From positions 229,841,741 through 229,905,740 of the forward strand of contig CM041465.1 of the NCBI GenBank assembly GCA_023213395.1: a stretch of 64,000 nucleotides of DNA, read 5' to 3'. The notes below the pieces were generated by a model. That model was not told the DNA's origin. It was given only the letters and a program-made list of their open reading frames with translations, and made no database searches. Source of the stretch: Cycas panzhihuaensis (lineage: Eukaryota; Plantae; Cycadophyta). Of the stretch, positions 202-44,014 are shown piece by piece (the stretch's first letter is position 1; every line of letters starts with the position of its first letter). The position numbers were made by a program, and so were the translations under genes.

Positions 202-415
202 TGTTAAAATGTAATGTTTTATCTAGACAAAGAGGGGTCATGTTGACTCACCCCTTAAAATGTAACTCCAAATAGGAGTTGTGACACTTAGCAGCCTCAT
301 GTAGGTCAGTTACATTTCTATTTGTAACGGTCATCTCAGTGATGTATATTTAAGAGGAATGAGACTCCATGTAATATCAAGTTCTGATCTTCATTCATCA
401 AAGCCGGGCTTATCA
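202..415 (+). repeat. Copia-1 5' LTR
   Basis: TGTTAAAATG...TTATCA, repeated at 5230 and followed by the PBS. Confidence 0.93.
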
Positions 416-426
416 TGGTATCAGAG
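416..426 (+). promoter_or_regulatory. Primer-binding site, tRNA-iMet
   Basis: TGGTATCAGAG immediately after the LTR CA. Confidence 0.92.
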
Positions 427-1111
427 TAGGTTATCCTGCCTACTTGAGAGAGGGTCCTTCGTGTGTAATAGAGTCTGTTCTGAGAGAGACAAGGAAGCCT
501 GCAACACAGGAGACAAATTGAAAGTGAAGTGAAGGATCCAACAAATCCAGAAATATACCTGAGGACCACAGGAAGTACCGTACGGCCATCATTTGAATCG
601 CAATCGACGGACCAAAAAAATCAAACTTCTCAAATCGAGCTAAAATTTGGCCAGCAAGTAGATCTTGACCTCCTCTTCAACTTTTCCTTCTAGATCGAAG
701 TCATTTGAAGAAGTTTTGATAGGGTTTTGGACCCTTTATCAGCCACATGGGTTTGGAGGTATTTCAGTAAATTTCTCCCAAACTTTTTGAAATTCCTAAG
801 TCAAATCTGTTTTGTAAACTCAGTGTCTGGGTATTACAAAAGTTTTGTGACAGACTTTGAGGAATTCTATGAAGTATTTTTTAAATTACAAGCAAAAATG
901 TGTTGTGCCCTAATTACGTTTTCCAGTCTTTCGGGTCGATTTTCTCCTCATCCATAAACTGTTTTGGAAAACTAATATCAGATCCGTGATCCTCATCTCA
1001 TAACCTCTCTTTTCAAGTATATATTGTACAATTCCATACAAGTTCAATTCCGTACGGAAATCCGTACCATGTATGGCCTGCACTATGTCTCTTAGTATCT
1101 CAGCTGTCAAA

Positions 1112-4100
1112 ATGGCTTCAGGCCTTTTCTCTCTGCTAGAATCAGAAAAATTAACTGATTCAAACTATCATGTTTGGAAAATTAAAGTAGAAACTGTCTT
1201 AAAAATAAAAAATGCTTGGAATATTACAATTGGGACTGAGACTTGTCCAAAGGACTCAGATGCTAAATTGGCCAACTGGGAAGAAAGAAGCAATATAGGT
1301 GTGCACATTTTGAAAATGTCGATTTCTGGCTCAATTCTGATATATGTTGAAAAGCTGAATTTGTCCTCTGACATTTGGAAATGTCTTGAGAACCTGTATG
1401 GACAGAAAAATAAAGCAAGAATAATTGCTCTCAAGGAAGAATTGTATAGACTGCATATGAAGGAAAATGAAAATGTAACAGATTTTATGCACAAGGTTGT
1501 TTCAATACGAAATAATTTATCAAGTGCAGGAGGTTTGATTTCCAAACAAGAGCTGGTAGAACCAATAACAGCCAAGCTCCCAAAGTCTTTCGATACAACC
1601 ATTAACACCATTATAAATACTGAAAAAATAAATAAAATAACTCTTGATGAATTGATGGGATTATCATGGAGACAGAACAAAGGAATAAGAGATATGAAGA
1701 CTCCTCAGAATTTGAAGATGCCTTTATGTCCAGATTGAACCTGGGCTCACGCAGCAGAAACCAAACCCGTGGACGAAGCATAACACCTGACTTCAAAGGG
1801 TGAGGCCAGTGGCAAGACTCTAGGGGATGTGGACGAAGTAGAGACCTAAGGATTTGTTTCAATTGCGGAAGGACCAGGCACATCTCCAGTGCATGTAGAA
1901 TCTTTGACATATGTTACCATTGTGGATAAGCTGGACATTACCCTTACCAGTACCCTCAGCGAAGAAGTGAGATTCAGAAAGGGAAAAGACCTATTGGTGG
2001 CTACAGCAAAGAGAAAGCAGATGAAGATGAAGAAGAGACTGCCTTCATTGTTGCCTTGGCTTCCAACCTCAAAGACAATGACACATGGTACGTTGATTTA
2101 GGAGCTTCAAGACACATGACCAGTCATGAAGATTGGTTTGAGACATTGGAACCCTATAACCTTGATAGATCAGTCGAAGTGGGTGATAAATATGCTCTTG
2201 ATATAAAAGGAATTGGAACCATTGCTGTCAACTTGCAAGGAAATGTCAAAAAAATCGAAAACGTTTTATTGGTTCCTGATTTAAAAATGAACCTTCTTTC
2301 TGTTTCCCAACTTAGTAAAAAGGGATTGAGAACCATCTTTGATGAAGATGGATACTGCTATATTCTGGACATGAAAAAGAATGGTGAAACTGTTGCAAGA
2401 GGCGTGAGATGTAATGACTTATACAAACTTCTGTCGAATCCTATACTTCCCGACCGAAAAGAAAAGCTTGTAATCGTCAAGTCTAGTAATAAAATTTGGC
2501 ATTTGAAGTATGGGCACCTTCCAATTGAGACATTGAAATTGATGAAAATTTCTAAAATGGTGAATGGATTACCTTGTATCTCTTCTGATAACTTTGTTTG
2601 TAAAAGCTGTCAATTTGGGAAACAACACTGACTCCCTTTCAAGGAAAGCACCTGGAAGACAGAATCAAGGTTGGAGCTAATTCATACAGACCTCTGTGGT
2701 CCCATCTCACCACTTACTATTAATGGATGCAGATATTTTTTGACCTTCATTGATGACTTTACTCGAAAGGTATAGGTCTACTTTCTCCACAACAAATCAG
2801 AAGTTTTTGAAATATTTAAAGAGTTCAAAGCAGAAGCAGAAATGGAGGTAGAAGCAAAAATTAAATGCATTTGATCAGGCGGAGGAGGTGAATATATATC
2901 AAAAGAGTTCCAGAACTACTGCAGAATTCATGGAATCCGCAGACAGGTTACAACTCCATACACACCACAATCAAACGCAGAAAGCGTAAAGAAAAAACAG
3001 AACCTTAATAGAAATGGCAAGAAGCATGGTCTATGAAAAAGGTGTACCAAAAAACTACTGGGCAGAAGCAGTGAGTACAGCATGTTATCTCATAAATCGG
3101 TGTCCAACAAAGGCCTTAAAAAATATCACTCCAGAAGAAGCTTGGACGGGCAGAAAACCTGATGTAAGTTCACTCAAAGTTTTTGGGAGGCAAGCCTTTG
3201 TTCATATACCAGATAAAAAAAGGTCTAAATTAGATGCAAAAAGCATAGAATGTATTATGATAGGATATAGTAAAAATTCAAAGGCCTACAAATGCATAGA
3301 TCCTAGAACCAACAAAATCTATGTGAGTAGAGATGTAGTTTTTAATGAAGGAGATAGTGAATCTGGACAAATCAGAATAATTGACGAAGGAGAGAAGATT
3401 GCCGAACAAGAAATTACAAAGATCGATCAAGAAATTGAGAAAGAACCTACTGCTAAGGTAACAACAGAGGAAGTTTCAATTTCTCTTCCTACATCCAGCC
3501 AAAATCAAACAGGAGTGATAATAAATCAACCGGCAGATGAAACTGTCAATCTAGAAGAACTCGGTACTAAAGAGGCCGCACAAAAACAAAAGAAGCTGCC
3601 CAGATGGTACATTAAAATAATTGAGGAAGGACAAGGTACTGTAATGGAACACAGAACAAGAAGTCAAAAACCTAAAGCCTTGTTAACCAACGTCGAACCT
3701 CAGACATTTCAAGAAGCCCAAGAAGAACAGGTATGAAAAACAGCCATGGATAATGAAATGGACTCAATCAAAAGAAATCAGACATGGGAATTGGTAGAAT
3801 TACCAGTCAATAAATCTGCAATCAGTTGTAAATTGGTCTATAAGACTAAAGAACAACTAAATGGCAAAATAGAAAAATATAAGGCTAGATTGGTTGCAAA
3901 AGGATACACTCAAACAGCCGAAGTAGACTTAGATGAGACTTTCTCTCCTGTTCCTAAAATGAATACAGTAAGAACAGTGATTGCTCTGGCTGCAACTCAA
4001 AACTGGAAAATCTTTCAACTAGATGTAAAGAGTGCCATCTTGAATGGAGAACTAGAAGAAGAGGTCTACATGAAACAGCCTGAGGGATATGTTAAAGCAG

Positions 4101-5222
4101 GACAGGAGAATCTAGTGTGCAAACTAAAAAAGGCACTATACGGGCTGAAACAAGCTCCTCGAGCCTAGTACGCCAAACTAGATTGTTTTCTGGAAGGAAA
4201 CAAGTTTGAACATTGTGATTCAGACCCCAATCTGTACATAAGGAAAAAGGAGGGCAAAGTCACAATAATTGTTGTTTATGTTGATGATATGCTAGTCACT
4301 GGTAGTGATAACAAAGGCTCTGAAGACATAAAAGAACAACTTCAACAAAAGTTTGAGATGACAGACCTAGGTCTTTGGAATTACTACCTGGGTCTGGAGA
4401 TAGGACAACAACATAATTGTATAACTCTATCCCAGAGTAAATACATCAAAAGTCTACTTATCAGATTCCAAATGGAAAACTACAATCCCTGCGCCACACC
4501 CATGGAAACAAATTGTGAATTGATAGTAGATGAAATGGAAGAAGGAGCAAATATCACTGCATGCACAAATGATCTAAGTCTCGATCTACACCGACAAAGA
4601 ACTGTGCCTGACATATCTTACTCAGTTGGACTTGTGTCCAGATATATGCAGAATCCAAAATTAAGACACGGGAAGGCCATAAAACGAATTCTGAGATATC
4701 TTAAGGGTACCATAAATCTGAAATTGGTGTATCCAAAAGGAGGTTCAACAAAATTGTCGGGATACTGCGACTCCGACTGGGTAGGAGACGGGGAACAAAG
4801 AAAGTCCACGAGTGGATACTGCTTTTCCGGGTCCTTTAACAATATCATGGTGTAGCAAGAAGCAAGCCATTGTTGCATTGTCTTCCATCAAGGTAATACA
4901 AAGCGACTATTGCGAGAATGTGCGAAGGTGTTTGGCTAAGACAACTTCGCTTGATTTAGAACAACAACAGAAAGAAGCAACTCCTCTCAAATGTGATAAT
5001 CAGAGCACCATCAAACTGACTAAAAATTCAGTCCTTCATGCAAGAACCAAGCATATAGAAGTTCATCATCATTTCATAAGGGAAAAAGTACACAACAAGG
5101 AAATTGACTTACAATATTGTTCGTCTTCAGAACAAGTTGCAGATCTTCTGACAAAATCTCTTGGAAAAGAAAGATTTCAATATCTAAGAAACAAACTAGG
5201 GTTACTGGAGATAAAACATTAA
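1112..5222 (+). pseudogene. gag-pol: Copia-1 gag-pol polyprotein with stops and frameshifts
   Basis: Gag (KLTDSNYHVWK), PR (WYVDLGASRHMT), GAG-pre-integrase (WHLKYGH..CKSC), INT ([14 protein letters not shown]), RT (QLDVKSA, YVDDM) and RH (CDNQS, TKHIEVHHHF). Confidence 0.93.
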
Positions 5223-5229
5223 GAGAGGG

Positions 5230-5422
5230 TGTTAAAATGTAATGTTTTATCTAGACAAAAAGGGGTCATGTTGACTCACCCCTTAAAATGTAACTCCAAA
5301 TAGGAGTTGTGACACTTGGCAGCCTCATGTAGGTCAGTTACATTTCTATTTGTAACAGTGGAATGAGACTCCATGTAATATCAAGTTCTGATCTTCATTC
5401 TGTCTAAGTCAGTTTTCTATCA
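5230..5422 (+). repeat. Copia-1 3' LTR
   Basis: Copy of 202-415 with a net ~24-bp internal loss and a different U5 end. Followed by TSD GACAA. Confidence 0.92.
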
Positions 5423-7050
5423 GACAAGCCAGTGGTTAATTGCAAGTGGATATACAAAATAAAAGAAAATGTTGGTGGCAGGATAGAAAAGCATAACGGC
5501 AGACTCATAGCAAAGGGTTGTACTGAAACAACAGGGATAGGCTTCAATGAAACATTCTCACCTGTTGCCAAACACAGCACTATAAGAACCATAATTGCTT
5601 TGGCAACCCAAAACAACTGGAAAATCTACTGATTGGATGTAAAAAGTGCCTTCTTGAATGGTGAGCTAGAAGAGGAAGTCTATATGAGACAGCTAGAAGG
5701 CTACATTAAAGAGGGTCAAGAAAATCTTGTGTGCAGATTGAAGGAAATATTATATGGGTTAAAGCAAGACCGAGAGTCTGGTACGGATAATTTTCTTTCA
5801 CAAAATGGTTTTCTCAGATCTAGCTCAGATTCTAATCTATACACAAAAAAGAGAATTGGGCTAATCATAATAAATGTGGTCTATGTGTGGATGATATGAT
5901 TCTCATAGGGAGTGATACAAATTAGTATCAAGTATAATAGGTCAGCTAGAAAAAAGCTTTGAAATGATAGATTTGGGACTTCCAAGTTACTGTTTGGGAA
6001 TAGAAGTCAATCAAAGCAAGGAATCAATTACATTGTCTTAAAGCAAATACATCAAAAATTTGTTGACTAGATTTCAAATGGAAGATTGCAACAATTGTGC
6101 GACTCCCATGGAAATCAATTGTGATCTGGTTCCAAGTGATGGAGAAACTACAGTAGATGCAACTCTATACAAACAACTAATTGGAAGTCTAATTTATCTC
6201 ACTGCAATGAGACCAAACATCTCTTACTCTGTGGCTTTAGTCTCAAGATACATGCAAGAACCCAAGACAAGACACTGGAAGGCAGCCAAGAGGATACTCA
6301 GGTATTTGAAAGGAACAACCAATCTGAAACTTGTCTATCCAAAAATCAAATCAGACAAGTTAAAAGGGTTTTATGATTCAGACTGGGCTGGAGACAAAGA
6401 AAACAGAAGATCTACAAGTGGACATTACTTCATCCTAGGATCAACAACTATCTCCTAGAGCAACAAAAGACAACCAACAATTGCACTTTCATCCACTGAA
6501 GCTGAATACAAGTCAATTGTCAATGCTACTTGTGAAGTAGTCTAGCTAATGCAACTTCTACAAGATTTAGATAAACAATAGCAAGGAACAACAACTTTGT
6601 TTTATGATAACCAAAGTGCCATAAAATTGACCAAAAATCCTATACTTCATACACGAACAAAACACATAGAGGTGAATCATTATTTCACTCGAGAAAAGGT
6701 GCAAAACAAAGAAGTTGACTTGACATATTGTCCTTCAAATGAGCAAGTTGCAAATATCCTAACAAAACTGCTCAGCAAAGATAGATTTCAGGTTCTTAAA
6801 AATATAATAGGATTAAAAGGATAAAACAATAAGAGAGGTTGTTAAGATATAATGTTTTATCCTAAGGGTACTTTGAGGGTAATGTTTCAATCCCTCTTTT
6901 ATGTAACTCCTAATGTAACCTAGACACTTGTCTAACACGTGTCATCTATACTTATATCAGTTACATTTACTCATCTATATTTAACGAGGCTTCCTCCCTC
7001 ATAATATCAATCAAGTAGTTTTGTCTTGCATCTAGGTCTCAAGTTTATCA
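5423..7050 (+). mobile_element. Copia-0 3' part (RT, RNase H, PPT, 3' LTR 6840-7050)
   Basis: RT/RH ORF pieces at 5432-6824, PPT AAGAGAGG at 6831-6838, LTR TGTTAAG...TTTATCA similar to the Copia-1 LTR. Confidence 0.9.
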
Positions 7051-7309
7051 ATGGTAACACGGAATTGATGTAAATTGTGATATTGCTTAATAAAATAAAC
7101 GAGTTATATGGAAACTATGTCTCATATGTTATATGTGATTGGTTTATGATGATGTAATGGTTGATAGTGTTGTGATTAATGTGTTATTATGGGCTTATGT
7201 GGCATAATGTTGTATGAGCAACTCAAATGTTGACAAGAAGCCCCAAACCTAGACTATCGAAAGTGCCTTTTAACAAGTGATCCCTACAAAGAACAAAGGG
7301 AAGTCAACA
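7051..7309 (+). repeat. 3' part (R/U5) of a tRNA-Glu-family Gypsy LTR into which Copia-0 inserted
   Basis: Has AATAAAATAAACGAGTTATATGGAAA, TGTTGAC, CTAGACTA and ends in AAGTCAACA, all matching the U5 of elements A and B. No PBS follows. Confidence 0.75.
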
Positions 7310-17225: not shown

Positions 17226-18894
17226 AATATGTAAGATGCTATGTACAATGACTAATTATAACTCGATATAAGATTCTAATTACAATGAACATAATTGTCT
17301 ATGATTTTGCAACTAACAAAAAGTGGTGTGTAATGTGAGAGCTTGAAGGAAAATAAATGAAAGAGGAAAGAAAAGACTTTCAAGTAAACTCAAACTACAA
17401 TTACAGTATTTGTTGGATTGTATGCATGATCTCACATGCTTTCAACTGAGAACAAATCAATAAAAGGTATGTACAAAATCATAGAATATTAGAAAATTTT
17501 TCATTCATCAAATAAAAACTGAATGAAATGAGATGTCCAATAATGTACAAGAAACATTCCAATAAAAGTGTAAGCAGATTACACTAGCTCACAAAGTTTA
17601 TATGTATTGCTTCTAGTGAAAAGTATATCACAAGGCCTACACACTCAAAGCCTTTGAACTCAATACCCTATAATTGTTTGGGTCAAATTTGGTTCATACA
17701 TACCTAAAATAGTGGAAAATATGCTAATGTGCAATGCAAGGAATGCTCCAACACATGCTAAGGCAATGAACTATGCTAGAAAAAGAGCTTTCAGGGAATG
17801 CACCAAATGCATGTGACAAAGGGACAAACACAGTCCAAGATGATGATGTCAGCCTTGTAGATACAAACATTGTAATAAAATGTAATGATTAATTATGGGT
17901 CATTATGAAAAGGTGTTGTGTTATGTAAAAAAATGGTTGTGACCATGAGACACAACTATTCCTGTGAAAAGGCATGTATTTTTGTATTTGTGAAGCATTC
18001 TCTCACCATGTTAGGTGTGAAAGCCAAGTATTGTGATCTATGGATGTATGACACTCTCATATGGTGATATTGTTTAATAATATTAGAGTTATGTGGAAAT
18101 ATTGTCATACATGTGAATATGTTACTTTCATATTGTGATGATGATGATATGTTGTCATGATGATGCTTTGATGTTTCTATGAGTTGGGATGAATGTATAT
18201 GGATAGAATTGTGACTATGCAGCCAATATGTTGAGAATAACCCTGTAGAGATTATCCAAAAATGGCCCTTGACAAAAGTGCTTCATGGTATCAGGAAGCA
18301 GTTAAAATTGGTTTCATTGCCTAATTCTATTTGTGGAGGGAGTGAGTTAGAGTTTTGCCTTTCAAAACATATGCCCAAAGGCCAAGGAACCTTGGCTGTC
18401 ATTGTAATGGTAGACTGTAACTAAGCCTTCGACAGCCATAAGGCCTCTCAATGTAGCCTTTGAAGGTGGTCAAGCCACCTAAACAACCTTCACCTACGGG
18501 ACTTTCTAAATCTAGTAGCAAAGGGCAATAAGATGGGCAAATGAGAAAAAAATACAATGGGCAAGAAGGATGACTTCCATAAAAAATGAAAAGATTAAGG
18601 GTTGGGCTATTCACAGGTCTAAAGCAAGGGGAGCACAAACACCCCTTGGACTAGAAAATGAAGGAATTAGAGGACCAATGGTATTAACACTAGTCCTAAT
18701 TGGATTTGACACACTTAGCCTGAAGGTTACAACCTTAGTCTCATAATTATTAACGACATAATAGAAAACCATAGAAAAAGACAGAAACTTCAGATGAGGA
18801 AGTGGAAACCCTAAAAGAAGAGAAAACATCAAAGAAAAAGGATGACACTTGAAAGGGAAAAGATGAAACCCTAGTCAAGGAAGAAGAATTAAGT

Positions 18895-20235: not shown

Positions 20236-21476
20236 TGTTAGAATTTATACACAGATTATAGAATAATCAGTGCTTTATTATGAGAGAGGTTCTCTATATA
20301 TACATTTGAGAAATTGTAACCACCATGTGTCTAACTAACACATGGAAGACACTTGTTTATGTTACATAAAGAGGGGTTTCTACATGACCCTTAACTAATC
20401 CTAGATAAAACATTACATTCTGACACCCTTTCTTAATGTTCTATCTATTAAATCCTATTTATCTCTAAGGACTTGAAATTTGTCCTTGCTGAGTGGTTTT
20501 GTCAATATGTTTGCAACTTGCTCATTTGTTGGGCAGTATGTCAGGTCAATTTCTTTATTCTACACTTTTTCTCAAATGAAGTGGTTACGCACTTCAATGT
20601 GCTTTGTTTGAGCATGAAGAACTGAATTGTTGGTTAGTTTGATGGCACTCTGATTATCTCAAAATAGAGTCGTCAATCCTTCTTGTTGTTGATCTAGATT
20701 TGACAGAAGTTGTCTCAACCAGAATGCTTCACATGAGGCACTAATTGCTGCCTTATAATTTGCTTCAGTGGATGAGAGTGCAATTGTAGATTGTTGCTTA
20801 CTACTCCAGGAGATAGTTGCTGATCCAAGGAAGAAGCAATAACCACTTGTTGATCTTCTCTTCTCTTTGTCTCCTACCTAGTTTGAATCACAGTATCCAA
20901 TTTGTTTGTTTGACATCATTCTTGGATGTGTGAGTTTTAGATCAATGGTTCCTTTCAGGTATCTGAGTATCCTTTTAGCAACTTGCCAGTGTCTCATCTT
21001 CAGTTCTTGCATATATCTAGAGACTAGACTTACTAAATATGAGATATCAGGTCTAGTTGCAGTGAGATTGTTGGGACATATTTTGACACATAGGCCTTGA
21101 GGAAGACGGAATACAGGTTGTATTGACCAAAGGAATGCAAGTGAAATCCGTGACGGAGTACGCACAGGCTAAACAGTTGAAGAAATCAGCATTCGGCACG
21201 TATGACAAAAAGGGTGAACGGCAGTGCGTATCACGTAACGCATCAGAGCGGAATGTAATCGAGCCGAAACGATACGTATGACAAGACGGACCGGTGGAGG
21301 CCCGGAAGGCGCCGTGACGTCACGGACCTAAAGAGACATTAGTTAAGTGTATAACTAATGATTAAAGTGAAAGGGTACCTTGGTAACAAAAAGGTATGGT
21401 TATGACTTTGGGTCATGACCTTTCATCCAAAAGGCATCAAAGGGACATATTTAATGGTGCTTTGAGGACCATTCCA

Positions 21477-21572
21477 ATGTGAGAGCCGAGTGATTCAATC
21501 ATATTGTATACTCTCAAGGGTGAGAGCCGAGTTATTCATTCCTATGTCATGTGCTCGAGGGTGAGAGCCGAG
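21477..21572 (+). repeat. Three 41-bp-period GGGTGAGAGCCGAG boxes in the A 5' LTR (two copies in the 3' LTR, 26130-26183)
   Basis: Boxes at 21479, 21518 and 21559, starting ~25 nt after the TATA-like TATTTAA at 21448-21454. Confidence 0.92.
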
Positions 21573-21962
21573 ATCAAGGGTACGCAAAAGTGCGGATGAC
21601 AAGACGTATGATGTACCGAGTGGAGCATGAGTGCATGATAAGTACCATCTGGTACGCATATGTAATGTAGAGGATCAGATGTCGTTGGAATGCTCCTAAC
21701 GCATTCCATTCGTAAATAAACCGTTGAATTAATAAAAGAAGAGTTATGTGGAAATTGGTGCATTCTTGATGTGTGTTGATGATGTGTCAAGTATGTATTG
21801 AATTACATCATTGCGTGTACCATTCTGTGAATTATATATGGAATTATATGTGGAATATATGTGTATAACCATGTTGACAGTGTCCTAAAACTAGACTATA
21901 GCGCTGTGTAACCTTGACAAGTGCACTGATTCCACAAGGGAGTGGAATCTCCAAGTCAACAT

Positions 21963-21975
21963 TGGTTCCGTTGCC
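21963..21975 (+). promoter_or_regulatory. Primer-binding site complementary to the tRNA-Glu 3' end
   Basis: TGGTTCCGTTGCC is the reverse complement of GGCAACGGAACCA, the plant tRNA-Glu acceptor end as recalled. Confidence 0.88.
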
Positions 21976-22095
21976 TACGTCCATTGAGGAGGGACAGGGC
22001 CTAGGGGTTTCAAAGAGAATGTGTAAAGGGCAGAGGACCCTGGCTGCCATCGTGATGGCGGGTCAGAATTAAGCCACAGCCTGTGGGACCTTCCA

Positions 22096-25000
22096 ATGCC
22101 ACCTAAGAGGCCTTCAAGGTCGGAAGAGCCCCAGAAGGATACTTCACCCAAGGAAAAGGAGACTAGTAGACAAAGGGCACTAAGATGGTCAAAGGAGGCA
22201 AAACTCAGAAGGGCGAGGAGACTAAGTTCGCAAAACAACGAGACTAAGGGACAGTCCGTTGAAGGATCTGAGGCAAGTGGAGCCCAGACACCTCAGGAAG
22301 AGGAAACCCATGGCGAACGCATGGTATTGACACCAACCCCTATCAGAGATGATTTGTTTAGCTTGATTGGAAGGAAGCCTAAAGTGGACGAAAACATAAG
22401 GAAATCTTAACAGAGGGAAGTATACCAATGAGGACACTCAAGGACCTAGGTGATGTTGATAAGAAGGCGGAGGAAGGTCCCTCAAGATATTGGGAAAACA
22501 AGCTAACGAGGCTATTTGAAGATTCGACAGAAAAGGGTTCTGATCAATCTTACATTATGGTAACACCATTGACAATACAAGTTCCAGGTGTAGTGGAACC
22601 TATACATATAAAAACTCCGTTCAAAAATCCGTTGTTTGGAAAGGATACGACAGCAGTAGTCACTCCCAGTACATCCCCAAAGGACGGAGGAGGGGAAAGA
22701 TCACCATCAGGGGGGGAACGGTTGCAATCTCCCAAGATGGACGACCATAGAGATTTCGGAAATTAATCTTCAATGATACTTGACGCAGCAGAGCATGTGT
22801 ATTTGTTTCGTAATCTCATTGATGTTAGAAAACTAACGGAGGCAGATGAGATTAAAGCACGCTACCAGTACATTGAGAGGTGTACCCTTGGCTTGGTATA
22901 AGGAAGCGAACAAAAATGAGCCATGGGCAAAGATGAAGAAAGCGTCAAGAGAGATTCCAAAAGTTTCGCAGAATGAAGTCGGAAATCGCATTAGAAATCG
23001 TGCAGAGGTCGGGAATCATCCTAACTTACATTACTACAATCAACATTATTCCCCCAACTATCATCAATCACACAATTACCCATCATAACATCAACAATTA
23101 CTTCGAGAGGGCTAAATGAGAAGTTGAGCCATGATGCATGCTCATCCACGAAATGATTGAAGAATGGTGAGGAGTTGGGATTGGATTTGGAGATGGAAAT
23201 GGATGCTCGTGGGGACAAGATTCCTTCCGCTAAGATTGGAAGATGAGATTAGAGAGTCGAGACGTAATCAAGATAATCGACCCTTCCGCCAAAGTTGGAG
23301 TAAGGTAAGAGGAGTCTCAATTAGAGGCACCGAGGAAAGAAGTAGCCCTATTGAAAATCGAAATAATCGGGAAGAAGAAGAGACACCAAAGAAGAAAGAG
23401 CACACGGAAGGGTGACCAAGTGGTGCCATATTTGTGAAGAAAACTCACATACCACCCGGAATGTGAATTGAACTTAAAAACAATGTGACGCACCAATGTG
23501 AGAAGTGGTGCCACATATGTGAGGTGGATACCCACACAACTAGGGATTGCTTCTACAATTCCAGAGGAATATCATTCAGAGGTCGAGGTGGGAAGAGGCA
23601 ACCCACCTGCAACGTGTATACAACGAGGGTGCACCGTAACCCTCGAGGAAGAGACAATGATGGGGAGATGCCTCATTCGCCACTGATTCGGACATCGAAG
23701 TCCGAATGCCCGATGAAGCCGGAATACGAACAAAAGCCGTCAGATGTGGTAAATCAGGCCAAGTGACCACAAAATGTAAGATTGCAAGGGTAAAGCCAAA
23801 GCAACAAACTTAATGACGATCGTGTTTAAACAAAAATGTGAAATTGCGTAATAAGCGAAAGAGAAAGTGGATGAAGAATACCCACATCCCCAACCGAATT
23901 GGATCGGTACAAGAAAGCAAAACAAGTGTTGGACGGTTTAATCCAGAGGAAAATATACCGCCAATGGGTAAGCCGTAAACAAAAAATGTGTACGCTCGAA
24001 AAACAAACAAAAGAGCCGGAGAAACTACTAGAAGAATCAACTAAAACCCCAAATGGTGCAAATGGAGGAGTTATTCAAAGGATTACCAGCCGAAGATATT
24101 CCCCGAATGTTGGTACTAATGGAGAATTTAGTAAAGCAGTTGCAGTTGACCATTCCTCTGTCTCAGGTGATTGATTGGATTAAAGGAGGTGTGTTGCAAA
24201 GAGGAATTACCAAAAGTTTGAAACAAATTATACCATCATTCGACATGGATCCAATGGTAACCATGTCCGTATTGGGAGAAACATTTCCTCGAGTTATCGT
24301 TGATGGGGGAGCAGCTGTGAATGTACTGCCCACCTCGACATGGCGGAAGTTGGGAAGCCCGAAGTTGGAAGCAGCGACTTATTCGCTGAAGTTGGCTAAT
24401 GAACTACTAGTACGACCCATGGGGAAACTGACCAACACCAAGGTGGATGTGGCAGGAATTGTCGTAAAGATCGATTTTACGATTGTGGAAACGGAGAAAG
24501 GTGCAACTCCTATCCACTTTATTGGGGAGACCATGGCTATACAAAACCCAATGTCTCCAAAGTTGACAGACGTAACCTTCACCTTGTCAGATGAAGGAAA
24601 TAAAGTAGTATTACCAATGTTGGGGAAGAACTCCATTGAGGTGATACCTGACAACGGATCAAGTACAACCGTTGTAAGGGAAGCAACAACTTCTTCATGT
24701 GACAAAGAAAACCTCTATCATACTGCGGAGAAGCCTACAACATCGACCCATTACCAGAAAGAAGAACCGACCTATTTTGGAGAAATTTACAATTCTTCAG
24801 ATGATGAAAACGAGATGAGATTTGTGGACTATTGGCTACGGGACGATTCTGAAGTCAACCCCTCATCCTATAGATGTAACCTACTTTCTTGGAATGTGAC
24901 CAAAACAGTTGCCACTCCAGAAGATAGAAATCATGGAGAATATGTTGGAAATTATGTAAAGCCCTTTTATGGAAAACCACTAGGTGGAATTTCCCATTTG

Positions 25001-25330
25001 AGACATTGTAGAGAACGTTGGTTAGGAGAAGACCAATTAAGGAATCATAAGAAGAAATCGACAAAGCATACCACACCAAGGAAAAGGCGGAAAAGGACAA
25101 GGCACGACCGCCACGACAAGACATCATATTTCAAGAAGGGTGATCGAGTATGGCGATTCGACAACAAATCCCAAACGACCCAAGGAGAATGGAAGATGCA
25201 TTGGAAAGGCCCATACAGGATTGAGAAAGTGTACCATAATGGCACTATCGAGTTGAAAAACTCTCACGCCACTTATTCCCTGAAATGGTCAAGGGTAGTA
25301 AACTGAAACCCTATATCAACTAGGGTGGAA
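22096..25330 (+). pseudogene. gag: Element A gag, aspartic protease and integrase C-terminal GPY/F module
   Basis: Start MPPKRPSRS, then LRGVPLAWY, KWCHICEVDTHTTRDC, PR VIVDGGAAVNVLP and FKKGDRVW..WKGPYRIEKV. No RT motif lies between them. Confidence 0.88.
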
Positions 25331-28300
25331 AAACTTACCAGCAGGATCAGCTGGTTGTATCATATCAGACAGCATGAAGTTGAGGCAAAATCGAATTGCC
25401 TTGATACCGAACGTGATTCGGCCTGTATGTAACATAAAATACAAAAATTAAAAAGCAGCAAAACAACCGTAACTCATATCATAAGCAATATGGTGAAGCA
25501 TGGAGGAAAGATATACCATCATACGGAAAATCAAGGGAGAGTCAAACAAAACAAAGCACCAATAGATGAGGATTTATTAACCAAGAATGGCGATCGAAAG
25601 AAGGAGCGAGGCAAGCAGGAGCAGCCTTAGAACAGAGAGGGGGAGGAATACCCCAAATTTTGAATTTTTTGTTGAGCAAGGATGCTCAACCCAATCATGT
25701 TGACCCGGGATAGATGTTGGGATATATTTTGACACATAGGCCTTGAGGAAGACAGAATACATGTTGTATTGACCAAAGGAATGCAAGTACGAACCGTACG
25801 GAGGTACGCACGAGGTGAAATAGTGAAGAAATCAGCGTGCAGGTGCGTATGACAGCGTGCAGGCATTGAACGGCACGTATCATATGATACGCACTGTGAG
25901 CGAACGAATCGACGGAAACGGCACGTATGACAATGACGGGACGGGAGGCACAGGAAGGCGCCAGACGTCGTCACGGACCTAAAGAGACATTAGTTAAGTG
26001 TATAACTAATGATTAAAGTGAAAGGGTACCTTGGTAACAAAAAGGTATGGTTATGACTTTGGGTCATGACCTTTCATCCAAAAGGCATCAAAGGGACATA
26101 TTTAATGGTGCTTTGAGGACCATTCCAAAGGTGAGAGCCGAGTTATTCATTCCTATGTCATGTGCTCGAGGGTGAGAGCCGAGATCAAGGGTACGCAAAG
26201 GTGCGTATGACAAGACGTATGATGACCGAGTGGAGCATGAGTGCATGATAAGTACCATCCGGCACGCATATGTAACAGAGGATCAGATGTCACCGAATGC
26301 TCCTAACGCATTCCACTCGTAAATAAACTGTTGAATTAATAAAAGAAGAGTTATGTGGAAATTGGTGCATTCTTGATGTGTGTTGATGATGTCTTTGAAG
26401 TATGTATTGAATTACATATGTGTACCATTCTGTGAATTATATATGGAATTATATGTGGAATATATGTGTATAACCATGTTGACAGTGTCCTAAAACTAGA
26501 CTATAGCGCTGTGTAACCTTGACAAGTGCATTGATTCCACGAAGGGTGTGGAATCTATCAGTCAACAGAGATATATCAATCTACCAATTAACGGTTTGTA
26601 TAATATGCCATCAACTGCAGGTTCCCTTTCATCTAGAGTCAGATCACAATTGGTCTCCATGGGTGTTGCACAATTGTTGCTATTCTCCATTTTGAATTTC
26701 CTCAACAGATTTTTGATGTATTTGCTTTGAGATAACGAGATTGAGTCTTTCTTTTGACTGATTTCAATTCTTAGATAATAATTCAGAAGTCCTAAATCCG
26801 TCATCTCAAAGCCTTTTTCCAATTGAGCTTTAATATTGGCTACTGACTTTGTATCACTTCCTATAAGAATCATGTCATCCACATAAACCACAATTATTGT
26901 GATTCATCCTTGTCTCCTTTTTGCATACAAACTGGAGTCAGAGCTGCACCTGAGAAATCCATTCTGAGTGAGGTATTTGTCCAATTTGGTATACCAGGCT
27001 CTTGGGGATTGCTTTAGCCCATATAATGCCTTTTTCAATTTGCATACAAGATTTTCTTGACCAATTTGAACATACCCTTCTAATTGTTTCATGTAGACTT
27101 CTTCTTCACGTTCACCATTTAGAAAGGCACTTTTCACATCCAACTAGTAGATTTCCAGTTATGTTGAGCTGCTAAAGTAATTGTTGTTCTCACAATGTCC
27201 AATTTTGCTACTGGTGAGAAAGTTTCTTCGTAGTCTATTCCAGTTGTTTGTGTATAGCCCTTGGCTACTAGCCTGGCCTTGTATTTCTCTATCTTGCCAT
27301 TAACGTTTTCCTTTATCTTGTACACCCACTTGCAATTGACTATTGGCTTGCCAACAGGTAGATCAACCAGCTCCCAAGTCTGATTCTTGGAGATTGACTC
27401 CATTTCAGCATCCATTGCAGCTTGCCATTCCTCGTGTCCTTTTGCTTCCTCAAAGGATTGTGGTGCTACGTTGCTGAATAGAACTCAATGCTTTTGGCTT
27501 CTCATCCTGTGAGTGAACACATCCCCTTTGCCTTCTTCAACTATCTTAAGGTGCCATTTTGGTACACTTTTTTCTTTTTTCTTCTTTTCTTTAGTGACTG
27601 AGCCTTTTGAAGACAATTCTTCCTCTTCAGTAGTTGAACTTTCATGTGTTTGTAATGCCCTCTTTGAATCATTAAGTTCTGTATCTTCTGAAGTAACCCC
27701 AGAGACTTCTTCTGTAAGGAGTTCTTCTTGAGATACCCTTTTGGGAGTTTCTTCGATTATTTGATGAATTGAAGTGTCCTTTATGATATCTTCTTCATTA
27801 AAGACAACATCTCTGCTTATATAGATCTTATTTGTTTTAGGATCTATGCATTTATAGGCCTTTGAATTCTCACTGTAGCCTATCACTATGCATTCTATAC
27901 TTTTGGAGTCAAATTTGGACCTCATTTTGTCTAGTATATGAACAAACGCTTGACATCCAAACTTTCTCAGATTACTTACATCTGGTTTGATTCTAGTCCA
28001 TGCTTCTTCTGGAGTAATTTGTTCTAAGGCCTTTGTTAGACTTCTATTTATAAAATAAGCAGTTGTGCTAATTACTTTGGCCCAGTTTTTGAGATCTGTT
28101 CATCTTCGATCATGCTTCGAGTCATCTCCATAATTGTTCTGTACTTGCGTTTAGCAACTCCATTGGATTAAAGGGTGTAACGAGTTGTGAATTGTCTGAG
28201 CATTTCATGTGCCTTGCAGAAATTTAAAAAATATATTGAAATATATTCTCCTCCACCATCTGGCCAGATGGATTTTATTCTTGATTCAAATTCTAATTCA

Positions 28301-33628: not shown

Positions 33629-34072
33629 CGTTGACTTATAGTTTGCTACACTTGTGAAAACCAACACTGGTTAAGGGATCACTAGTTGTTGGTCTAGCTT
33701 AGGATACGGTCAACATGATTCTTTTCCCATTAACTATCATTAAGTTTCTCATGCACACAATGTTATCACACATTCATCCTTAATTCATCACAATATCATC
33801 ATAAATTCCACACAGAAGTACATCAAACATGAATTCACTATACAATCATCATGGTACGCATAAGACACAATATTCCATGTAACTCTTTACTTTATTAAGC
33901 AATATGCTTCATACATTCAGTTCTGGAATGTATCCTGCATACGTTCCAACCATATACACAAGGCTTGTTACATGCGTCTCAACAGGGAATGTATCTGGAA
34001 TGCATCTGTTGGATTCTTAATACATACCACCTTCCTTGGTGTGCTGCCTATCGTGCTACCTCATCAATTGGA

Positions 34073-34291
34073 ATACTTGGCTCTCACCATTGAGAGAATA
34101 ACATATGATTGAATCACTCAACTCTCACCCTTGAGAATATGCCATGGAATAAGTAACTCAGCTCTCACCCTTGAAAGAATGACATAATATTGAATAACTC
34201 GGCTCTCACCCTTGAGAATATGCCATGAAATGAATAAATCATCTCTCACTTTGAAAGAATGACATATATATTAAATCACTTAGCTCTCACC
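34073..34291 (-). repeat. Six-unit ~41-bp array (ACTCGGCTCTCACCCTTGAG core) in the B 3' LTR
   Basis: Units start at about 34073, 34116, 34156, 34197, 34237 and 34278, with alternating spacer types. Confidence 0.92.
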
Positions 34292-34959
34292 ATTGGAATG
34301 GTGAGAAAAGTGCCATTAAATACCCATTCTGATGTCCTTTGGGTGAATGGTTATGACCCATGGTCATAACCATTCCTTTTCATAACACATGTGCCTTTTC
34401 ACTTAACACATGATTAACACTACCAATCCATGTATTCTCTATTCGTACGCCCATACGTACATTTATCCTTGCTATCGTTATCAACTGTGGGCGCATTTGA
34501 GTTTGTTCTGGTCATGCGTACTGTTCTAGTATGTTTTATCTACTAGCGTACCTAAAAAGGTACACACCCTGTCATGCGTTCCAAGGACTGTTCCTAAGCC
34601 CATTCTAGTTATTTCTAGAGTCATTCTAGCCATTTTGGGCCAGTTCCTAGTCATTTATGAGCCATTTTGGGCCTGTTTATGGTTGTTATGAGCCATTCTG
34701 AGCCCGTTTTTTGTCATTTCTAAGCCATTTTGGCCATTTCTGATCATGTTGATCATTTTATTCACCAACATCTATCCCGATCAACAAAAAGGTTCAAGTA
34801 TCCTTGCTCAAAAAATCAAATTTTTGGTGTTGTCTCTTTCTTTAAAATTTTGTGTTCTTCCTCCCCCGCTCTACATCGAGGCCTGCCCCTGTAACCCTGA
34901 CTCCAGGCCTCCATTATTTTTACTTGGTTTTAATAAATCCTCATTTATTGGTACTTAAG

Positions 34960-38743: not shown

Positions 38744-39332
38744 TGGAAGGTCCCCTGGCTATCGGAGGCTTAGTTATAGCCCGCCATCACGACGACGTCC
38801 AAGGTCCTCTATCCTTTGAACATTCTCCCCTGGTGAAAAGTCCTGGCCCAGTCCCTCCTCAATGGACATAGGCAACGGAACCAATGTTGACTTATAGTTT
38901 GCTACACTTGTGAAAACCAACACTTGTCAAGGGATCACTAGTTGTTGGTCTAGCTTAGGATACGGTCAACATGCTTCTTTTCCCATTAACTATCATTAAG
39001 GTTCTCATGCACACAATGTTATCACACATTCATCCTTAATTCATCACAATATCATCATAAATTCCACACAGCAGTACATAAAAGAGCATGTATTCACTAT
39101 ACAATCATCATGGAATGCATAAGACACAATATTCCATGTAACTCTTTACTTTATTAAGCAATATGCCTCATACATTCAATTCTGGAACGTATCCTGCATA
39201 CGTTCTAGCCATATACACAAGGTCTGTTACATGTGTTCCAAATAGGGAATGTATCTAGAATGCATCTGCTAGACTGTTAATCCGTACCACCTTCTTTGGT
39301 GTGTTGCCTATCATGCTACCTCATCAATTGGA

Positions 39333-39550
39333 ATACTTGGCTTTTACCGTTGGGAGAATGACATATGATTGAATGACTCGGCTTTCACCTTTGAAAATAT
39401 GCCATAGAATGAATAACTCAGCTCTCACCCCTAAAAGAATGACATAATATTGAATCACTCAGCTCTCACCCTAAAAAATATGCCATGCAATGAATAAATC
39501 ATCTCTCACCCTTGAAAGAATGACATACTATTGAATCACTCGGCTCTCAC
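39333..39550 (-). repeat. Six-unit ~41-bp array in the B 5' LTR
   Basis: Unit-for-unit counterpart of 34073-34291. Confidence 0.9.
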
Positions 39551-40110
39551 TGCTGGAATGGTGAGAAAGTGCCATTAAATACCCATTTTGGTGTCTTTTG
39601 GGTGAATGGTTATGACCCATGGTTATAACCATTCCTTTTCATAACACATATACCTTTTCACTTAACACATAATTAACAATACCAATCCATGTATTCTCTG
39701 TCTGTACGTTCATACATACATATATCCTTGTTGTCGTCATCAATTCTGAGAGCATTTGAGTTCGTTCTAGTCATGCGTACTGTTCTGGTATGTTTCGTTT
39801 GCTAGCATACCTGAAAAGGTACGCACCCTACCATGGGTTCCAGGGACCATTCTTGAGCCCATTCTAGTCATTTTTGGAGCTGTTCTAGGCTAGTTTTTGA
39901 TTATTTATGAGCCATCCTGACCATTCTGGCCTTGTTTATGGTTGTTTCTGAATCGTTTTGGCCATTCTGGGCCCGTTTCTGGTCATTTGTGAGTCGTTTT
40001 GGCTGTTTCTAACTGTGTTGATCATTTAATTTGCCAACATCTCTCCCGAGTCAACAAAAAAGGTTGAGCATCCTTGCTCAAAAAATCAAAATTTTGGTGT
40101 TGTCTCTTTC

Positions 40111-40916
40111 TTCAAGAATGTATTTGTGTGGTCTTATGAAGACCTAAAGGGCATTCCCCTAGAGATTGGGATGTACCATATAGATTTAATTGAAGAGGCA
40201 AAGTCAATTAAGTAGACACCATACTGCATGAACACCAAATACAAGGAAAAAGTAAAAACAGAATTAGATAAGATGTTAGAAGAAGGTTCTTTATGAGGTT
40301 GACTATAGCAATTGGGTGACCCTAGAGGTAGCGGTGCCCAAAAGAAATAGGAAGATCAGAGTGTTTGTTGACTATTGGCAGCTAAATAAAGTCACAAAGA
40401 AGAATCCCTTCCCAATTTTGTATATAGAGGATGTACAAGCGATGGTTGGGGTCAATGAAGTATGTTCATTTACAGATGGGTTCAGTGGGTATAACCAGGT
40501 GAGTATAATTTCAAAGGATGAAAAAAGACCACTTTTGCAATAAAATGGGGGACATATGCCTACAAGATTATACCTTTCAAATTAACAAATGCCCCAACCA
40601 TCTTTCAATGCATTATGCTTACTATTTTCAAAGAAATAATTAGAGACATAGTAGTAGTTTTTTTGGATGACTGGACTTGATATGGTATAATAAAAAACCA
40701 TACAAAAAATCTACATGAAATGTTGCAAACTTGTTGAGAAAATAACCTTTGCATAAATCCAAAAAAGTATACATTTCTTGTCCCTTTTGGTAATCTGTCC
40801 AGACACATTATCAATAAGGACGGGTTACCGACAAATCCCACTAAAGTATGTACAGTCCTACATTCCCCAACCCTAGCGACACACATGCAATTAAAAGGAT
40901 TCGTAGGATTGTTAGG
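40111..40916 (+). pseudogene. pol: Element C reverse transcriptase (non-chromovirus Gypsy type)
   Basis: FKNVFVWSYEDLKGIP, IRVFVDYWQLNKVTKKNPFP, SFTDGFSGYNQV and VFLDD. Confidence 0.88.
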
Positions 40917-43189: not shown

Positions 43190-44014
43190 TGTTGACTTAT
43201 AGATTTCACACCCCTTATGAGATCAATGCACTTGTCAAGGTAACATAGGTTGTAATCTAGTTTAGGATACAGTCAACATAATCATCACATAGATTTATTC
43301 ACCATTCCACACAGTTATATCACAGTTTACACACAGCAGTACAGTAATCAGCACATATTCAGCAATTCATCCTCATTACAAGCATAGAATCCATATTTCC
43401 ATGTAACTCTTTATTTTATTAAGCAATAAGTTCTTATACAAAAGGTGCTGGAATGCATTCCCTGTGCATTCCAGCCACATACACTGTCACTGTCACATGC
43501 GTACCCAGAAGGTACCCATCAATACACATGGCTTCAAGCTGTTGTCATACGTACTGGTCTCCGTACCAATGTGTCTGAATACTTGGCTCTCACCCTAGCC
43601 AGATGGTCCTTGTGAAATCACTTAAATATGCCTTCTTGGTGTCCTTTGACTGAAGGGTTATGATTGTTTGTCATAACCGTACCCTTCCAGTCACAAACGT
43701 ACCTTTTGCTAACCATTGGTTAATCTTCTTAACCATTGTCTTAATCCATCCGTACGTACGTCTGACATCATCCCAGGTATCCTTTCGTCAAGTTCTGTCA
43801 TGCGTACCTTTACCATCTGCTTGCATTCTGCCGGAGGTACATATCTGTGTTGCGTAGCTTCTCAGGTACGCACCTGTCATACGTACCAAGAATGTTGACT
43901 TTTCCGTCTTTTTGCTGCATGTGTACCTCCGTACAGTCCGTACCTGTACATCCAAGGTTACCTAGTCTCTCTCTGGTCTCCTCATAGCCTAGCGTGTCAC
44001 AATATGCCCCAACA
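43190..44014 (-). mobile_element. Solo LTR of the tRNA-Glu Gypsy family
   Basis: TGTTGAC...CCAACA with TSD AACAT at 43185-43189 and 44015-44019. Homologous to the A and B LTRs, with no PBS or PPT. Confidence 0.92.

Follow-up and report, generated by a model that had tools for sequence, protein, structure and literature searches.

In the LTRs of a family of plant retrotransposons, a 25-nt box was identified that is a real complement, well above chance, of the acceptor 5' strand and D-arm of tRNA-Glu(CUC), the tRNA that also matches the PBS of these elements. Judged from its sequence, the box may well bind tRNA-Glu(CUC) at a second site, upstream of the PBS, and would thereby assist in choosing this primer, opening its fold and positioning it, a role to which we give about an even chance. 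The box must originally have been copied from the tRNA, and the proposal made here is that it has been kept for use.

The window, meaning the whole 64-kb stretch of DNA that was analyzed, contains nested plant-type LTR retrotransposons (Table 1), and no tRNA genes and no Rfam matches were found across its 64 kb. Element A has an LTR pair, a TSD, a PBS, gag and protease and is a non-autonomous Ty3/gypsy-type element. Its two LTRs share 86% identity across 911 alignment columns, and its interior holds gag-like pieces with a zinc knuckle (a weak gag match) and an aspartic protease (PF13650, E 3.5e-5); no RT was present in any of the listed reading frames, RNase H and integrase were also missing, and a protein atlas search returned just weak Streptophyta protease-like clusters (score, 0.79). 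The U3 parts of the two LTRs of element A (21069-21320 and 25715-25960) differ strongly and their U5 parts are nearly identical, which suggests a recombinant element rather than simple ageing. The LTR family carrying the box is very abundant and of very high copy number, as the summed word depth over the element A region was very large in DNA contigs from four public runs representing four organisms (thousands of contigs), depth being distinct from copy number. No further family members were identified in viral contigs, where 120 loci with the PBS pattern and six matches to box plus PBS were all due to chance and protein loci numbered 0, or in genome contigs, which gave 37 bacterial chance matches only. 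Elsewhere in the window, an unrelated copia-like element at 202-5400 has LTRs approximately 5028 bases apart; it carries ATGTTGAC by chance, and TGGTATCAGAG directly after its 5' LTR is a sequence that we take to resemble a tRNA-iMet PBS.

Table 1. Coordinates of the LTR family copies in the window and of their tRNA-complementary and structural features
Feature	Position	Strand	Remarks
Element A	21069-26567	+	TSD GAGAT at 21064-21068 and 26568-26572
Element A, 5' LTR	21069-21961	+	
Element A, 3' LTR	25715-26567	+	
Three anticodon-arm boxes, element A 5' LTR	21479-21491, 21518-21532, 21559-21572	+	Each heads a 41-nt tandem unit
Stem 5' strand, AACCA + TGTTGAC	21867-21878	+	Predicted to pair with LTR end and first 5 nt of PBS
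Box, element A 5' LTR	21879-21903	+	Complementary to D-arm and acceptor 5' strand of tRNA-Glu(CUC), linear nt 29-3
Stem 3' strand, LTR end GTCAACA	21955-21961	+	Predicted fold
PBS of element A, TGGTTCCGTTGCC	21963-21975	+	Exact complement of last 13 nt of tRNA-Glu, including CCA
GGGAC	21991-21995	+	Complement of tRNA linear nt 59-63; fits CUC, not UUC
ATGTTGAC and box, element A 3' LTR	26476-26508 (box, 26484-26508)	+	Box identical to 5' copy
Element B, LTRs	33630-34855 (3' LTR), 38886-40129 (5' LTR)	-	
ATGTTGAC and box, element B 5' LTR	38941-38972 (ATGTTGAC, 38972-38965)	-	Homologue of the box of A
ATGTTGAC motif and box, element B 3' LTR	33685-33716	-	Homologue of the box of A
PBS of element B, TGGTTCCGTTGCC	38871-38883	-	Same 13-nt match; LTR end of B at 38891-38885
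Solo LTR	44014-43190	-	TSD ATGTT on both sides
ATGTTGAC and box, solo LTR	43249-43279	-	Homologue of the box of A
LTR fragment (7051 fragment)	~7050-7309	+	ATGTTGAC, decayed box and LTR end within 7227-7309
Copy C	17700-18321	+	Fifth, older family copy, overlooked by the initial annotation; one decayed anticodon box; LTR end GTTAAAA
Copy C, 3' part	18228-18321	+	ATGTTGAG, decayed box and PBS-like TGGTTTCATTGCC at 18309-18321 (2 mismatches)
Anticodon-box region, element A 3' LTR	26130-26183		
Anticodon-box regions, element B	34076-34291, 39377-39551	-	
Anticodon-box region, solo LTR	43582-43594	-	
TTAATAAA block	21713-21752; 39160-39125 (-); 43415-43385 (-); 7085-7120; 18073-18105		Five lineages

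To obtain tRNA-Glu genes, metagenome contigs were scanned with a pattern that combined acceptor strands derived from the PBS with the universal T-loop and left the D-arm unspecified. Among the 121 loci found, ARAGORN recognized 95 Glu-CTC and 25 Glu-TTC genes, while the same pattern gave no match in viral contigs. The tRNA-Glu 5' end that the initial annotation had quoted agrees with these real tRNA-Glu(CTC) genes, and nt 1-29 of the commonest of them served as the reference for pairing, a metagenome reference from which the host's own genes may differ. The 25-mer of element A has two exact occurrences in the window against a chance expectation of 0.00, and it and its homologues in element B (from 33685 and 38941) and the solo LTR (from 43249) all lie where they had first been placed; 59 nt were counted between box and PBS, which had been given as roughly 60. 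Paired with nt 1-29 of the tRNA, the box of A forms 25 bp (22 Watson-Crick and 3 G-U; -33.5 kcal/mol), that of the solo LTR 22 bp (-29.4 kcal/mol) and that of B 21 bp (-26.1 kcal/mol), each energy being reached by 0/2000 shuffles. The computed duplex of A bears out the earlier description of a pairing of about 25 nt with G-U wobbles and the GG of the D-loop bulged, as exactly G18G19 is left out; the duplexes of B and the solo LTR each bulge three bases of the D-loop. Pairing was not significant in the 7051 fragment (-15.8 kcal/mol, 106/2000 shuffles) or in copy C at ~18.2 kb (-12.0 kcal/mol, 508/2000 shuffles). The 7051 fragment, which ends with the LTR end GTCAACA at 7303-7309, has CTAGACTA at 7249-7256 as its sole remnant of the box, and this is the trace that had been noticed there.

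Local alignment of U5 with the complement of nt 1-63 of the tRNA gave scores of 28 for A and 30 for the solo LTR (0/3000 dinucleotide shuffles), both above the best score of 22 among 1158 other 200-nt windows, together with 20 for B (29/3000 shuffles) and 17 for the 7051 fragment (143/3000). In an energy scan of 12792 windows the minimum fell on the box of A; since unrelated windows reached energies down to -29.9, the value of -28.2 for B is not exceptional by itself on this measure.

The PBS starts 1 nt past the LTR end GTCAACA in both A and B, the canonical arrangement, and is contiguous over a short stretch of 13 nt. As GGGAC is the complement of nt 59-63, the 13-nt PBS and GGGAC together correspond to a standard 18-nt PBS that has been split. 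The two parts are separated by a 15-nt insert that can form a small hairpin, TACGTCCATTGAGGA in A and one base different in B; insert and GGGAC together occupy 21976-21995 in A and 38870-38851 on the minus strand in B.

On the other side of the box, ATGTTGAC is invariant in 6/6 aligned copies and, in the leaders of the two 5' LTRs (A5 and B5), pairs with the LTR end in the minimum free energy (MFE) fold as well as in the centroid fold. The predicted helix of A joins AACCAUGUUGAC to GUCAACA-U-UGGUU, that of B being similar with one mismatch, and as it extends beyond the LTR end it also takes in the initial 5 nt of the PBS. The TGTTGAC/GTCAACA stem that the initial annotation had drawn beside the box is therefore predicted in both full elements, and is longer than was said. 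As a prediction, A5 and B5 each have an inverted-repeat stem of the RSV type, closing a loop and ending at the PBS, and in the fold computation the stem still forms when box and PBS are held open. The overall stability of the leader folds was not unusual (z of -1.8 for A5 and -0.6 for B5). Neither strand of the stem varies among the younger copies, so that it offers no covariation; 38965 C>T, a variant seen in the family, would still allow a G-U pair there, and in copy C both strands have changed without compensation. Using RNAalifold on five copies, with ragged alignment ends, the inner hairpin only was recovered, with one compensated pair. The LTR terminus, which forms the 3' strand of the stem, is constrained anyway, being needed by integrase. 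Self-priming of the Tf1 type was considered and rejected, as the complement spans 7 nt inside the LTR and only 5 after it and a good tRNA PBS is present; the criterion, taken from PMC6317226, is complementarity of the 5' part of the transcript to at least 10 nt starting 0 to 5 nt past the LTR. An extra copy of ATGTTGAC lies at 25697-25704, some ten bases before the 3' LTR of A and beside the weak polypurine tract GGGATAGA, and could pair with the 5' LTR end GTCAACAU, bridging the RNA ends like CYC5/CYC3 of Ty1; at the matching place, element B has ATGTAGAG only.

Further complements of the same tRNA lie upstream. The anticodon box GGGTGAGAGCCGAGT is the exact complement of linear nt 27-41 of tRNA-Glu(CUC), the anticodon stem-loop, with some units near-exact. 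Element A carries three such boxes in its 5' LTR and two in its 3' LTR, the LTRs of B contain five to six that are partly decayed, and the solo LTR and copy C have a single box apiece. The remainder of each 41-nt unit is not tRNA-like, and the possibility that the unit is a decayed whole 5' tRNA half was rejected, its mean alignment score being lower than the shuffle mean (P 0.98). The anticodon motif can form a hairpin with a preceding CTCGAG or CTCAAG, the loop of which would fit the anticodon loop. Segments complementary to the same tRNA beyond chance, by which an extended PBS is recognized, were thus found in the form of the box (0/2000 and 0/3000 shuffles) and the anticodon boxes. All of the tRNA complements are on the sense (RNA) strand, in the order anticodon boxes, D-arm box, PBS and GGGAC. 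The candidate transcription starts, TATAA at ~21350, the TTAATAAA block at ~21730 and TATATAT at ~21834-21840, are all upstream of the box, so that whichever of them applies the box is in the 5' leader, within U5 or R. The block, TTAATAAA(A/G)TAAAGAGTTA(C/T)(A/G)TGGAAA, is conserved in all five lineages and might be either a TATA-like element or a poly(A) signal, a choice that decides where R begins.

Pairing of the box is specific for tRNA-Glu(CUC), as tRNA-Glu(UUC) shares the PBS and pairs far worse. With the 95 Glu-CTC genes, which have 11 distinct 5' ends, the box of A gave energies of -23.4 to -33.5; with the 25 Glu-TTC genes, which share the PBS, the range was -19.5 to -24.1, and Leu and Gly tRNAs gave -13 to -23. 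The anticodon boxes and GGGAC are likewise CUC-specific. Selection of single isodecoders is described for HTLV-1 and HIV-1 (PMC11251516).

If the box acts as a second tRNA-binding site, the free leader RNA would hide the start of the PBS in the stem, and the box, exposed in the loop just behind the 5' strand of the stem, would capture the D-arm and the acceptor 5' strand of the tRNA as a toehold. The acceptor 3' strand, thus freed, would invade the PBS, so that both strands of the acceptor stem would be held by the element RNA in a three-way junction with the 3'-OH of the tRNA against the stem, and the upstream anticodon-arm boxes and the GGGAC behind the PBS would provide extra contacts. An additive energy estimate gave -96.2 for PBS plus box versus -75.3 for the PBS alone in A5, and -79.5 versus -69.3 in B5, so that the combination is favored by ~21 kcal/mol (A) and 10 kcal/mol (B) in a leader that retains the stem; this estimate ignores the cost of the crossed topology, the tertiary structure of the tRNA and the modified bases that the tRNA D-loop carries. 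RNAcofold of the leader with the tRNA, put forward as a check by the initial annotation, returned PBS pairing only, because the pairs of the box and those of the PBS cross. More tentatively, and with rather less than an even chance in our estimation, the four sense segments could pair with approximately 57 of the 76 nt of tRNA-Glu(CUC), the two strands of the acceptor stem among them, unfolding it almost fully, the PBS stem being a gate opened from the box toehold. If true, no retroelement would be known in which primer and template pair more extensively, and the choice of isoacceptor would be built in.

The reading of the box as part of a multipartite PBS, which the initial annotation had advanced, is partly supported and draws on the complementarity (21 to 25 bp in three diverged lineages, counted towards the second-site role), the omission of G18G19, the predicted stem and the anticodon-arm complements; its weaker side lies in the variation of the box. 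Among A, B and the solo LTR, box identity is 68 to 76%, compared with 59 to 67% for the upstream flank and 72 to 82% for the downstream U5, and the box is no better conserved than its flanks in this comparison. Significant pairing has been lost in two of the five lineages, namely, the two older copies (the 7051 fragment and copy C). Five of the six interior changes between lineages keep the pairing through G-U pairs (opposite nt 26, 7, 5, 10 and 16), the one that breaks a pair being in B, opposite A9. Among the variants listed from DNA contigs, two that are frequent in the family, 21882 G>A and 21887 A>G, preserve pairing and the majority family letter at 38947 restores the pair with A9; the variant 38963 G>A, at 37 to 50%, breaks a pair at the 5' edge of the box. 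Binomial tests that assume 72 to 75% transitions, as in the LTR family, gave p values of 0.07 to 0.12 for five of six and 0.02 to 0.04 for seven of eight pair-keeping changes, counts that were chosen after seeing the data, and as a sign of selection on the box the pair-keeping substitutions are only suggestive. The shares of 21882 G>A and 21887 A>G are ~93% and 87% in run X6, versus 27 to 37% and 6 to 22% in the other runs, and shares that differ so strongly indicate that different box subfamilies dominate in related species. The change 21887 A>G would give a Watson-Crick pair with tRNA isodecoders that carry C in GGTCAGG.

As this evidence of selection is weak, a neutral origin and fate of the box is a serious rival, though on the whole we consider it less likely than not. 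A piece of tRNA-Glu(CUC) would have been copied into an ancestral LTR by aberrant reverse transcription and would now be drifting, the anticodon boxes and GGGAC being further debris. Templating is the only way in which a 25-nt complement can arise, and drift would account for conservation no higher than that of the flanks, for the decay of the 7051 fragment and copy C to nonsignificance and for the weak result of the pair-keeping test. Each box is ~12 to 17% distant from the tRNA complement, which by our arithmetic is roughly what neutral divergence would give since the lineages split. A source for such copying is also at hand, in that plus-strand synthesis continues into a tRNA lacking m1A58 (PMC11251516). 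However, primer read-through puts the tRNA complement downstream of the PBS, and the order observed here is a circular permutation that needs several more rearrangements. The 41-nt units, moreover, carry the complement of the anticodon arm only and no decayed 5' half, the box sits exactly inside the loop closed by the stem on the PBS, every piece is both sense-strand and CUC-specific, and the family reached its very high copy number while carrying these pieces.

The box had also been offered as a potential target of tRNA-Glu 5' fragments, whether host tRF-5 or 5' halves that silence the element or fragments for which the box is the element's decoy, an idea that fits poorly and that we regard as improbable. 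The pairing takes in nt 3-17 of a 19-nt fragment and can extend, in a 5' half, as far as nt 29, yet nt 1-2 and 18-19 of the fragment are unpaired in every copy (for B and the solo LTR, nt 1-3 and 17-19), and G-U pairs fall in the seed, at nt 5 and 7, or at nt 10. Under the usual plant target rules, such mismatched sites are poor for slicing, and complementarity to the 19-nt 5' fragment, seed included, was not near-perfect. A site that harms the element should be lost, yet the box has been kept in three lineages, and a match that extends beyond nt 19 to nt 29 suits a whole tRNA or half better. The precedent for such a role, from Martinez et al. 2017 (PMC5605234), is that 19-nt 5' tRFs in AGO1 cleave Arabidopsis transposon mRNAs, including that of the Gypsy element Athila6A; "Glu" has 0 occurrences in the main text of that paper. 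Those targets resemble the box in being sites in a transposon transcript complementary to the 5' part of a tRNA and differ from it in that the box misses both ends of the 19-nt tRF and reaches past it, and in that the tRNA concerned is the element's own primer.

Least probable of all is that the box has another role in the leader RNA or LTR DNA, such as dimerization, packaging or a promoter element, with the likeness to tRNA reflecting its origin only: U5 has the conserved blocks ATGTTGAC, CCTTGACAAGTG and AAGTCAACA, the palindrome CTAG lies inside the box and a tRNA could bridge two genomic RNAs, but the parts common to the three lineages are those that pair with the D-stem and acceptor strand of the tRNA. 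An A-box Pol III promoter on the antisense strand was dropped as a candidate, as the GG of the A box is absent.

Regarded as a second tRNA-binding site, the box, an upstream and unusually long predicted contact, is of a known kind, the multipartite PBS, in a new form. The primer activation signal/A-rich loop of HIV-1 and the U5-TpsiC motifs of RSV comprise 7 to 8 nt, their partner in the tRNA being the T arm or the anticodon loop. An upstream U5 motif that pairs with the tRNA outside its 3' 18 nt was reportedly described for HIV-1 by Beerens and Berkhout in 2002 and for RSV by Morris and Leis in 1999. The box shares with these an upstream position in the putative U5, the crossed order and the place beside a U5 inverted-repeat stem, here a predicted one, bordering the PBS; it differs from them in having 25 nt directed against the D-arm and acceptor 5' strand.

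The Ty1 boxes, which are short, follow closely behind the PBS, whereas here a single box of 21 to 25 bp lies 59 nt upstream, takes the acceptor 5' strand as well and is in crossed order, and both the tRNA and the host kingdom are different. The two systems are alike in that a short PBS, 10 nt in Ty1 and 13 nt here, is backed by segments complementary to the same tRNA, D-arm included, the Ty1 segments being boxes 0, 1 and 2.1, which pair with the T and D arms of tRNAiMet (PMC3592414). For Ty3, the D-arm and T arm of the primer tRNA pair with U3 (PMC5371799), and in Drosophila Gypsy the anticodon and T stems are bound by a site of 11 nt (PMC1635307). The likeness is that of a Ty3/gypsy-type element RNA with a second site for its primer tRNA, here a predicted one, and the anticodon-arm boxes may also sit at the 3' end of the RNA, if they are in R or U3; the second sites of Ty3 and Gypsy are at the 3' end of the genome, whereas the box is in the 5' leader and is two to three times longer. 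For plant LTR retrotransposons, literature listings brought up no report of a box of this kind, and in the main text of a plant-wide PBS survey (PMC6317226) "Glu" has 0 occurrences.

Most of what is understood about the choice and unfolding of primer tRNAs comes from a small number of models in yeast, insects and retroviruses, in which the extra contacts comprise 6 to 11 nt. In the plant family described here, a contact of 21 to 25 bp with the 5' half of the tRNA is predicted, accompanied by contacts with the anticodon arm. If functional, the box would provide a strong and easily mutated handle on primer selection, isoacceptor choice and tRNA unfolding, and might account for the ability of a non-autonomous element, despite its short PBS, to compete for the machinery of its partner.
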